Source: Octopus vulgaris
Taxonomy: Eukaryota
DNA: 64,000 nt
Assembly (NCBI GenBank): GCA_951406725.2
Contig: OX597815.1
Span: 131,564,001 to 131,628,000, forward strand
Reading direction: 5' to 3'
The notes under the pieces were generated by a model. It did no database searches. It saw only the letters and a list, made by a program, of their open reading frames with translations, and was not told where the DNA came from. Of this stretch, positions 19,434 to 23,749 are shown one piece after another (within the stretch, counting starts at the first letter, position 1; each line of letters starts with the position of its first letter). Position numbers and translations under genes: made by a program.

Positions 19434-19523
<90 letters not shown>

Positions 19524-19543
19524 AAATGATGTGTTATGATACA

Positions 19544-19858
19544 TGAACTTGTTAAACTTTTTTGTGTTCTAAACATGCTCTTGTCACCAAAGAATGTATA
19601 TATATGTATTATAATACTCTGTGTCAACCAATATTCTGTGTGTGTTTGAATATACAGATACAATACCAATATCCCACTGAACTTTTTAATAATTCCTTCT
19701 GGAAACTATCTTTAACATGTTCTTGAGAATGTATATTTATGTTGTAATCTTTTGTGCCCAATATTTAAGGAACTTGTTAAACTCTTTTGTCCTTAACATG
19801 TCCTTGTTACCAAAGACTGTATATATGTAATGTAGCATTTTGTAACAACCAATAATTA
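19544..19858 (+). repeat. Three diverged ~100-130 bp tandem units
   Basis: gaacttgttaaact...aacatg...aagaatgtatat...ccaatatt recurs near 19544, 19679 and 19770. Confidence 0.65.
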
Positions 19859-19963
19859 AGGCAAGCAAACTACTACATGTTACTTTTGACAATCTTTTTC
19901 CAAAGAGTGAAACCGGTAAAGTAAATAAACATCTTTTAAAATTGCATTTTCAAACGTTCTTTC

Positions 19964-20066: not shown

Positions 20067-20130
<64 letters not shown>

Positions 20131-20134
20131 AACC

Positions 20135-20331
20135 CTGTAAATGTGCATAGACAGCAAATAAATCATCCTCGCTTAGATGCATACCATGCAGCAACCACTT
20201 AGACACCTGTGCATAAGGAAAATTCACAAAGTTCCCTCTTTTATAAAATAAATGACAAAAACAACCTACTTCGACAGGCAAAAGATGAATATTTTATAAG
20301 GTTTTTGAATCCGAAACTAAACGGGAAATAA
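20135..20331 (+). pseudogene. C-terminal GIY-YIG remnant of a second, divergent PLE
   Basis: Across frames: [25 protein letters not shown]...[21 protein letters not shown], homologous to HRQQIRDP..IPLSNHLATC...NFIDKFEPKLNKQ* of the main ORF. Confidence 0.8.
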
Positions 20332-20381
20332 TCTACAATTTTACCTAAAACAACTTCCGCTATATGCAGTAGCCATAACAC

Positions 20382-20881
20382 ATGCTTGATAACGCTGAGA
20401 ACACCCGTTTCACCACGAATCGAAGACGAACTACGGTAAGAACTCTTCCCATTTTGTATGCAAACACCCTAATGCACACAACATGAACAAAAAGCACTAA
20501 CAAAATAGATATTGTTTTGAACAGACCATTAGCAGTAGAAATAACAGGAGATCATTTTCAAGACCTCAACAGAGATTACCCACAAGAAACTGGACAAAAA
20601 ACCGATCTAGATCTAGAAGTAAACCCAGATCATTTCTCCAGGTGGTTAAAAACAATGCTAACAAGAAATTGAAAAGTAGCATACATAATACCAAAAACAA
20701 GACAGAAAACATAACGAAACCAAGTAAAGTACCACAACCAAAACGCAAAATTCATCAAGCAAACATCAACAGGAATATAAATCATAACCAGAAAAAAATC
20801 CATTTTTTTACGTCAGGACAACAAACACCGGAGAAAGAAAAAATCCAAGAGGAAACATACCCCAAACAACTGAACGTATAG
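20382..20881 (+). CDS. Predicted spliced basic ORF1 of the PLE (exon 20382-20435, intron 20436-20524, exon 20525-20881)
   Basis: ATG at 20382; donor acg|GTAAGA, branch-like CACTAAC, acceptor ttttgaaCAG; phase-0 join gives MLDNAENTRFTTNRRRTT|TISSRNNRRSFSRPQQRLPTRNWTKNRSRSRSKPRS... Confidence 0.55.
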
Positions 20882-23115
20882 ATCCTAAAATAATTAATTT
20901 ATCAAAAAGAGATCTTGACAATGATGAAATCCAACTTCTGTCAAAAGGACTGAAATTCACACCTACACCAACAGCCAACCACCAAGAATTAAAGGAGGAT
21001 ATCCAAAAATTCTGTCGAAAATTACGACTTGTAGAATTCTTCGCTAACAAAAGTAATGAGATTGATGAATCCCTAGTAAGGAATAAATCAAATTTCACCC
21101 CACCAAAAGGAATAAATAACTACCTTGACCAATACATTGATATCCTGTCTAAATTTCCCCTTAGACGCAATACCAATGTTAGGCCAAACATTAGCAAATC
21201 AGAGATGTCTGCATGTAAACGTATACAAAACGATCAAACAATAATAATTAAACAAGCAGATAAAGGTGGTGTAATTGTTATTATGGATACCGAATACTAT
21301 AAGGATTTGGTTGAAGACCAACTGAAGGATACAACCTTCTATTGTGAAATACCCGCAAATATAGACCACCACATCATGAAAAAGATCAACAACCTGATTT
21401 CAACACACCACAACTCACTTACGGATAATGAAAAAGACTACATCACCAATTTTGAACCAAAACCCAGCAACTTCTACGGCTTACCAAAAATACACAAATC
21501 AAAAAACATTCAACAGGCAGTAAAAGAACAAGAAAGTGAGTACATAAAATTATTACATCCAAAAGACCTAAAACTTAGACCTATTATAGCTGGTCCAGCA
21601 TGCCCTACACACCGTCTAAGCAATTTTATTGACATTGTTTTGAAACCACTATGTACTTACATACCAAGTTTCATCAGGGATGACATCGACTTCCTGTCCC
21701 ATCTTCCCAAAACAACAGAAACAAATTCAGTTTTACTAAGTTTTGATGTGGTAAGCCTCTACACCAATATTCCACACGATTTAGGAATAAAGGCGATTAA
21801 ATACTGGTTAGAAAAACATAGAGAAGTGATTCCCAGCAGATTCACAGTGCCATTTATATTAGACACAGTCAAACTTATTCTAGAAAATAACACATTCTTC
21901 TTCAATGGAAATAATTACATCCAAATTAGAGGCACGGCGATGGGAACGAGGTTTGCTCCCGTTTACGCCAACTCTGTAATGGGATACTTAGAAGAACAAC
22001 TCTACCAAGAGGTGGAGGTAAACTATGGCACTGGATTTAGAAAGTATATTGAAAAGGCATGGAAGAGATACCTAGACGACTGTTTCATAATCTGGACAGA
22101 ATCTCTAAATACTCTGGAAGAGTTCAATATCCTCCTGAACAACCTACACCCATCTCTCAAATTTACAAAGGAGATGAGTAGTACCAAATTACCATTCCTG
22201 GATATAATGGTAATTAAAAAAGACACCACCATCACCACAGATATATACTATAAACACACAGACACACATCAATACCTAAATTTTAAGTCGTGCCATCCAC
22301 CACATACAAAACGTAACATCCCATACTGCCTAGCCAGAAGAATTTGTACTATTGTAGAAGATGCAAATATCAGGAACAAACGCCTAATAGAACTAAGAGA
22401 ATTTTTGCTCAAACAAAAATACCCATCTCTACTTATAGAAAATGGCATACAGCGGGCTATAAAAATACCTATACAACAACTTAGGACAACCCAAGGAAGA
22501 GGAAAACAAGAACAAGTCATACCATTCATAGTGACACACAACCCATGTCACCAGAATATCTTCAACATTGCCAAAGCAAACCTACCAATCATTGCCCAAA
22601 GTGATGAATTAAAAGACATAATCAAGGATCGAGCTATGGTGCTTAGTAAAAGACAGCCTAAAAACTTGAAAACATTACTAACAAAGGCAAAATTTGACCT
22701 CAGCAACAAAGACCAAACATTCACGGTATCTAAATGCAATGATAGCCGATGTGGCACATGCCAATTCATACATACCGGTCAATATATAAACACAAAAACC
22801 GGGAAAATATTCACAAACGCGAATATGAACTGCAAAAGCAGAAATTTAATTTACTGCATCAAATGCCCAAATTGTGAAGAAATATATGTAGGTCAGACGG
22901 GAAACGCACTATTAGAACGCTCACGTGTACACCGGCAACAGATTAGAGACCCAGAGGTCCGTCAGATACCTTTGAGTAACCACCTAGCAACATGTGGTCG
23001 GAAAATATATATAATATTTCCATTCTACAAATTACACAGCCCAAGTGAAATCGAGAGGAAAATCAGAGAAAAGAATTTTATTGATAAATTCGAACCCAAG
23101 CTAAATAAGCAATAA
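20788..23115 (+). CDS. PLE reverse transcriptase + GIY-YIG endonuclease (frame open from 20788; first ATG 21205)
   Basis: IINLS..LLSKGLKFTP upstream of the ATG; ADKG, FYGLPKIHK, RPII, FDVVSLYTNIP, GTAMG, RYLDD, LPFLD, SCHP; CNDSRCGTC linker; LIYCIKCPNCEEIYVGQT; no stops. Confidence 0.95.
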   Translation, partial: PEKNPFFYVRTTNTGERKNPRGNIPQTTERIDPKIINLSKRDLDNDEIQLLSKGLKFTPTPTANHQELKEDIQKFCRKLRLVEFFANKSNEIDESLVRNKSNFTPPKGINNYLDQYIDILSKFPLRRNTNVRPNISKSEMSACKRIQNDQTIIIKQADKGGVIVIMDTEYYKDLVEDQLKDTTFYCEIPANIDHHIMKKINNLISTHHNSLTDNEKDYITNFEPKPSNFYGLPKIHKSKNIQQAVKEQESEYIKLLHPKDLKLRPIIAGPACPTHRLSNFIDIVLKPLCTYIPSFIRDDIDFLSHLPKTTETNSVLLSFDVVSLYTNIPHDLGIKAIKYWLEKHREVIPSRFTVPFILDTVKLILENNTFFFNGNNYIQIRGTAMGTRFAPVYANSVMGYLEEQLYQEVEVNYGTGFRKYIEKAWKRYLDDCFIIWTESLNTLEEFNILLNNLHPSLKFTKEMSSTKLPFLDIMVIKKDTTITTDIYYKHTDTHQYLNFKSCHPPHTKRNIPYCLARRICTIVEDANIRNKRLIELREFLLKQKYPSLLIENGIQRAIKIPIQQLRTTQGRGKQEQVIPFIVTHNPCHQNIFNIAKANLPIIAQSDELKDIIKDRAMVLSKRQPKNLKTLLTKAKFDLSNKDQTFTVSKCNDSRCGTCQFIHTGQYINTKTGKIFTNANMNCKSRNLIYCIKCPNCEEIYVGQTGNALLERSRVHRQQIRDPEVRQIPLSNHLATCGRKIYIIFPFYKLHSPSEIERKIREKNFIDKFEPKLNKQ

Positions 23116-23596
23116 TAATAATACTTAGAGGTATTACTTCCACTGCTACGACCATGACCACTAACAACAACAACAATACTAAAGGTGATCAAGACGAAGA
23201 TAGCAGGAAAATTATCTTATTTAGGGTTAAAAGTTCTATTGCCACCACCATCACCACTAGCAACAATAATTAAGGTGCTGACAATGATGATGATGACAAT
23301 TGAAATATAAAAATATAAAAATCTCTGACAAAGGATATTTACAACATTTCTAAAAATAACCCAACAATTGCTGCTTCGGCCAGGGTCAAGATACAGGACT
23401 CTTGACCTGTCCAACAAAGCGTGATGCCTATCATATATATATATATATACACACTGATATATATATATATATATATATATATTGTGAAGCATGACTGTCA
23501 ACACTACTACATGAACCCGAAGATTGCAGAATTCAATGCATGAAAGTACTAGCTACAATTTGCAAAAAAAACAAACAAAACAAAAATCACACACAC

Positions 23597-23649
<53 letters not shown>

Positions 23650-23711
23650 TGAAGACGGGTGTGTGAACAACAAACAGATGTATTAGTTTAACGCTCGGGA
23701 AGTGAGAAAGT

Positions 23712-23749
23712 CTTTTATGTTTCGAGCCTACACGCTCATCATCAGAAAG
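23712..23749 (-). ncRNA. Minimal type I hammerhead-like motif, probably mutated
   Basis: cttt-CTGATGA-t-gagc-gtgtag-gctc-GAAAC-ATA-aaag; stems I and II pair, but ATA replaces the GTA needed to pair in stem III. Confidence 0.6.

Follow-up and report, generated by a model that had tools for sequence, protein, structure and literature searches.

A probable -1 ribosomal frameshift joins a separate ORF1 to the reverse transcriptase and endonuclease in a Neptune-like Penelope family of Octopus vulgaris

A 64,000-nucleotide stretch of the Octopus vulgaris genome (GCA_951406725.2, contig OX597815.1, positions 131,564,001 to 131,628,000 of the forward strand; hereafter the window) carries what its sequence identifies as a 5'-truncated member of a young Neptune-like Penelope retrotransposon family. 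In intact copies of this family ORF1 is a single 430-aa frame without an intron, and it overlaps a reverse transcriptase (RT) and GIY-YIG endonuclease (EN) frame that lies at -1 to it. The RT-EN is probably made by programmed -1 ribosomal frameshifting at a U UUU UUU heptamer, as a rare fusion to ORF1. Most ribosomes would stop after codon 430 and release ORF1, and a minority would slip one base at codons 406-407 by tandem slippage of two Phe tRNAs, both of which could re-pair perfectly after the slip at T TTT TTT, giving an ORF1-RT-EN product of 1175 aa. ORF1, with its predicted helical N-terminal half and basic, disordered C-terminal half, would pack RNA, standing to the fusion as Gag does to Gag-Pol. 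It is the conservation of the heptamer in phase, with its type changing across relatives, that points to a programmed -1 frameshift.

The features of the window are collected in Table 1. A first-pass annotation, made from the letters of the window alone, had described an RT frame open from 20788 with its first ATG at 21205, a basic ORF ending at 20881 and overlapping it by 94 nt, and a T TTT TTT run correctly phased for a -1 shift, and all of this holds. Frame coordinates place a basic frame at 20501-20881, upstream of and overlapping the RT frame, and ORF2, which matches both RVT_1 and GIY-YIG, contains no Met before residue 140. The Cys and His residues of the CCHH endonuclease were taken from the ORF2 translation. 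Neptune we take to be the clade of endonuclease-bearing Penelope-like elements of Arkhipova 2006. The endonuclease lies C-terminal to the RT, not N-terminal as in the Naiad/Chlamys arrangement, and the linker that connects RT to EN has the Neptune-clade form CX2-5CxxC, the Cys linker of Neptune and Nematis being defined in the part of PMC8557442 consulted. By eye, against the alignments of that paper, the window RT is closer to Neptune than to Nematis; our own RT tree holds no named references.

Table 1. Features of the window copy and its surroundings (positions in the window).
Feature	Positions	Strand	Remarks
3' end of another Penelope-like family, decayed GIY-YIG	20126..20398	+	Foreign, outside the element; contains ATG 20382; 273 bases, 73-90% matches elsewhere
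Window copy, Neptune-like Penelope family, 5'-truncated	20399..23430	+	99.7% identity to intact copy L031
ORF1, 3' portion (codons 271-430 plus stop)	20399..20881	+	Basic, predicted disordered; TAA 20498-20500 in the window copy only
Candidate intron, GT..AG (rejected)	20436..20524	+	Coordinates deduced, none given in the first-pass annotation
ORF1/RT overlap	20788..20881	+	94 nt, RT -1 to ORF1
ORF2, RT and GIY-YIG	20788..23115	+	775 aa; INLS/GLKF N-terminal motifs, Cys linker, C-terminal GIY-YIG
Slippery heptamer T TTT TTT, predicted -1 shift site	20803..20809	+	ORF1 codons 406-407; same position in relatives
RT core	21655..22113	+	Pfam RVT_1, E 3.4e-6, slightly below the curated cut-off
CX4CX2C linker motif, Neptune/Nematis type	22735..22761	+	From sequence; definition in PMC8557442
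GIY-YIG endonuclease with CCHH residues	22846..23106	+	Pfam PF01541, E 2.7e-5, above the cut-off
3' pseudo-LTR, first part	23218..23430	+	Further piece at 23481-23559 between TA runs

The full unit of the family measures 4271 bp and has a direct pseudo-LTR repeat, about 635 bp long in the intact copy L031, with partial copies, inverted or in tandem, next to most of 19 other loci; pseudo-LTRs, partial tandems and inverted 5'-truncated copies, features of EN+ Penelope-like elements, are all present in the family. Intact copies account for about 190 junctions at more than 99% identity, and the family is spread over many chromosomes. Within the pseudo-LTR of L031 (3900-4040) repeated CCAAT boxes and a TATA-like word can be seen by eye about 300 nt upstream of the ORF1 start, a stretch that is absent from the window copy. 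A simple pattern search of the same pseudo-LTR found no core of the hammerhead ribozyme that is expected there in EN+ Penelope-like elements.

The window copy itself lacks the promoter region and the first 270 ORF1 codons. Searching the 2.8-Gb source genome, where 40 out of 628 candidates were scored, gave 42 matches; once the window's own is set aside, 39 of these begin at 20399 and 2 begin later. Upstream of that point all 29 other loci examined share a common sequence that the window does not have, and the window copy cannot make ORF1 or the fusion from its own promoter region because that region is absent. The foreign 3' end abuts the truncated copy directly, with no TA run separating them. 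Where the window has TAA at 20498, each of the 33 other distinct copies in the comparison (chosen as best matches to the window) has AAA, and the stop is a private nonsense change of this copy.

The first-pass annotation had the element expressed through both an intron and a -1 frameshift. The second part is well supported by conservation in the genome and in distant relatives; the intron, like the start at ATG 20382, is an artefact of the 5' truncation beside another element and of the private TAA. The ATG sits in the fragment of the other element, the family beginning at 20399, and the deduced intron is ordinary ORF1 coding sequence in intact copies. Readthrough of the TAA was also rejected, the stop being private to the window copy. 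A longer in-frame intron would run from 20436 to an acceptor AG at 20880-20881, but that acceptor is rich in purines and its phase, judged by eye, is lost in two of three other families; contigs from runs guessed to be RNA contain no such joint, and this candidate too was rejected.

Two other structures lie close to the copy. A hammerhead-like core (CUGAUGA...GAAA) is visible on the minus strand at 23690-23745, within a small piece of a different repeat flanked by TA runs; it escaped Rfam, which returned microsatellite-driven noise only for the window and reported no hammerhead, this visible one included. At 19520-19960 a 440-bp unit with an approximate internal repeat stands between two TA arrays and is possibly a small non-autonomous element.

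Within the family the split two-ORF form is the norm. The exact junction occurs at 180 places in the source genome, compared with 193 for its flanks (the two patterns being slightly unequal in length), so that the split is not a sequencing slip of the window copy, and the T-run and the -1 offset proposed earlier are kept in other copies. Among the 100 junction rows listed, 95 are exact, three have A8, one has T8 and one has an extra G; eight Ts, which the first-pass annotation had considered as a sign of one continuous ORF, are thus found in a single listed row, and about 5 of the 100 listed copies are fused in frame. All five of these variants add one base and none loses one, all fuse the ORFs, and a nearby A6 run shows both gains and losses. 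The restriction to +1 variants could reflect cis-preference for RT-richer transcripts, or slippage or assembly bias. A frame-joining indel was present in 11 of 41 compared segments, where six or more distinct changes on differing SNP backgrounds account for it; this proportion is not a frequency because the copies were selected for long open frames. The open frame of fused copies, at 1175 codons, equals the predicted length of the shift product (407 + 768). Unspliced contigs span the junction in three of four runs whose RNA status was guessed; being contigs, these cannot show level or rare splicing, and one run (X7) has no ORF1 coverage.

The junction is also retained in other families of the source genome. 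Four families including that of the window have an unbroken ORF1 of 454-495 codons from stop to stop; in the other three (479-495 codons) it ends in the same overlap with CAT TTT TTA G, where the window family has CAT TTT TTT A. The RT N-terminus pattern was found at 449 places belonging to other families, of which 50 loci were read; source-genome searches with two relatives as query recovered the window family alone. At the protein level, 62 of the 72 listed ORF1 relatives of 330-480 aa have F-L (60) or F-F (2) within their last 45 residues, and 10 lack the motif. Per residue, the motif is 14 times as dense in this C-terminal stretch (64 per 3240) as in the 90 residues upstream of it (9 per 6480). 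The motif is preceded by H, S, P, R, N, Y, D, G or L, and K, E, Q, M or W occurs there in none of the 62, compared with a background of 22.7% (p 1e-7); NNT TTT TTA excludes these five because they have no codon ending in T. Residue F406 is invariant in a 56-row ORF1 alignment, which is not an independent test because the rows were picked from motif-bearing full-length matches.

A metagenome scan extended the comparison to more distant relatives. From 80 loci kept, 63 with an RT N-terminus were used, after loci without one, three duplicates of a single contig and a broken match had been set aside. An RT tree of 38 rows (400 residues or more, no more than two stops; midpoint root) separates 30 rows, including the window family, from 8 with support of 100/100. 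Of 11 loci assigned to the sister side, 10 have an RT frame that is open for 91-177 codons upstream and Met-bearing, with no long overlapping ORF. From the other 52 loci, 7 with less than 300 nt upstream were dropped, and addition of eight source-genome families chosen by eye and deduplication at 80% gave 43, in which related loci do not represent independent events. In 37 of these 43 the overlap contains an in-phase heptamer, against 4.8 expected from local composition, and the two other phases give 2 and 4; the heptamer rule was widened to a final G after such cases appeared, with the same rule used for the null. Where ORF1 has at least 150 codons the figure is 30 of 31, the exception being G GTA AAC. 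Six of the 43 have no in-phase heptamer, two of them with a long Met-bearing frame running into the RT. The subclade of the window family uses U UUU UUA, UUG or UUU, and its sister subclade U UUA AAC and, in one case, A AAA AAC, frequently followed directly by the ORF1 stop. Most loci with enough sequence have a GIY-YIG-type motif downstream.

On the Neptune-like side, L241 (112-1584) and L236 (6-536) have no shift site and a long frame into the RT with a His...Asp...Gln...Cys pattern, which to us recalls an Ulp1-type cysteine protease; Pfam gave no Ulp1-type protease match on this frame, which may be a polyprotein alternative to frameshifting. Among the U UUA AAC relatives, L213, L239, L245 and L248 have much longer ORF1 frames, of 720-950 codons, and these may contain extra domains.

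The ORF1 of intact copies, at 430 aa and with a helical N-terminal half, is not the small protein first proposed. An AlphaFold model (mean pLDDT 69) has six helices, confident over approximately residues 81-240, and beyond residue 260 the protein is basic and predicted to be disordered. Pfam gave no Gag match and no family in more than one of 56 members, Foldseek returned nothing at E <= 0.001, and the best VIA-align hit (Z 9.6, rmsd 5.1, 147 aligned) was among generic helical bundles with no clear fold match. ORF1 has 392 relatives at E <= 0.001, and the 150 listed range from 51 to 706 aa with none longer; two named relatives are bivalve, and no relative was found in viral contigs. Fused long relatives numbered 0 among 293 candidates, which is weak evidence. 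By analogy with Gag, ORF1 may be an abundant RNA-packing protein.

A stimulatory hairpin or pseudoknot downstream of the run, for which the first-pass annotation had suggested folding, did not appear in the window family: five folds and a simple pseudoknot search 3' of the heptamer found nothing, with z from -1.2 to +0.6. At programmed -1 sites such an element is expected 5-9 nt downstream. Downstream hairpins with z < -2 occur at 7 of 20 U UUA AAC loci, compared with 2 of 23 loci of the window family's subclade. Seven loci (L223, L227, L231, L235, L247, L249 and L263) share a GGACC/GACCG...CGGUC/GGUCC stem 6-11 nt after the heptamer, and this stem is a candidate stimulator in the U UUA AAC subclade.

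We considered whether the T-run could serve something other than a ribosomal shift. The best-surviving alternative, an improbable one, is that it serves as the pyrimidine tract in front of a 3' splice site whose AG lies at 20815-20816 (TTTTTTAG in relatives) and that an intron joins ORF1 to the RT frame. The run with its downstream CAG resembles an acceptor, the CAG of the window family being in phase six bases on; TTTTTTAG is found in 15 of the 23 loci of the subclade with the AG in the same phase; and introns are kept by Penelope-like elements according to the part of PMC8557442 consulted. However, 8 of the 23 loci have no AG right after the run, one family (L203/L211) has no in-phase AG at all, and the run is six Ts with no C in all 23, while the sister subclade has U UUA AAC. 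The four source-genome families offer no good in-phase donor, the best scores under an approximate matrix being 1.6-3.7 bits or below zero and falling at unrelated positions, and the ORF1 tails beyond the shift site are conserved as protein. The guessed-RNA contigs contain no spliced joint, although contigs drop rare forms.

Two further explanations appear very unlikely, and to the same degree. RNA polymerase might add U or A in the T7 and A7 runs and so bring a few transcripts into frame, as the pure T7 beside A7 in the window family and the five of five +1 variants among the 100 listed rows would allow, but in most relatives the site reads U UUU UUA/G or U UUA AAC, sequences that depend on the observed codon phase and make poor homopolymers. 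Alternatively, the rare fused copies could be single-ORF masters and the 95% of split copies passengers moved in trans. Some copies do have a single open frame, reaching 1175 codons; their fusions, however, stem from six or more distinct indels on differing SNP backgrounds, no other private variant is common to the A8 copies, and other families and distant relatives retain the split at the same motif. Least probable of all is separate translation of ORF2, through reinitiation or from a non-AUG codon close to the ORF1 stop. Of the 37 loci with a heptamer, 8 do have an RT-frame Met upstream of INLS, but the first AUG of the window family (21205) would remove the conserved N-terminal motifs, and the conserved heptamer would be left unexplained.

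Beyond the window family, we lean narrowly towards a broader reading of programmed -1 frameshifting, in which a deep and large Neptune-like EN+ Penelope branch is not single-ORF: a gag-pol-style -1 frameshift would join an undescribed coiled-coil ORF1 to RT-EN, with HIV- and coronavirus-type heptamers swapped between subclades, the U-rich subclade might need no classical 3' structure, and databases would carry truncated RTs with ORF1 missed. If this is true, a major Penelope-like group sets its ratio of structural protein to enzyme as retroviruses do, contrary to the single-ORF picture. It would also bring to light an overlooked family of ORF1 proteins, put right the N-termini in many RT models and supply natural -1 sites with no obvious 3' structure. 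The junction of the window family suits a direct reporter assay because the family is young, numerous and near-identical.

Among Penelope-like elements, the endonuclease-less Athena/Terminon elements have a frameshifted ORF1. The window family differs from such elements in carrying an endonuclease and in being dispersed over many chromosomes. Canonical EN+ Penelope-like elements are single-ORF by description in the parts of PMC8557442, PMC3846280 and PMC4209133 consulted, whereas in the window family ORF1 stands apart and the -1 junction is conserved. That some 95% of junctions have two overlapping ORFs is a departure within the EN+ Penelope-like group, not an exclusion from it. A literature search whose scope lay outside the 2006 clade, 2007 Athena and 2017 Terminon papers and Repbase found no -1 frameshift described for EN+ Penelope elements, and the parts consulted of PMC5408684, PMC6431247, PMC5718144 and bioRxiv 10.64898/2026.07.22.740005 have nothing on the ORF1/RT junction. 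The legend to Fig. 1 of PMC8557442 does speak of an ORF1 separable by a frameshift with a pseudoknot; the text consulted leaves the clade unnamed, and Neptune may already be marked in the figure. As far as that legend goes, the likeness is a coiled-coil ORF1 split from the RT by a frameshift, and the difference is the pseudoknot, which was not found in the window family.

The other comparison is with the gag-pol junctions of retroviruses and LTR retrotransposons, in which -1 frameshifting takes place at heptamers such as U UUU UUA of HIV-1, coronaviruses using U UUA AAC. Unlike gag-pol, the window family has an ORF1 with no Gag or other Pfam match and no clear fold match, no LTR-type integrase and no stimulator that we could find. 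What the two systems have in common is a heptamer of the form X XXY YYZ, placed where a structural ORF and a polymerase ORF briefly overlap, and the heptamers of HIV-1 and of coronaviruses both occur among the relatives of the window family.
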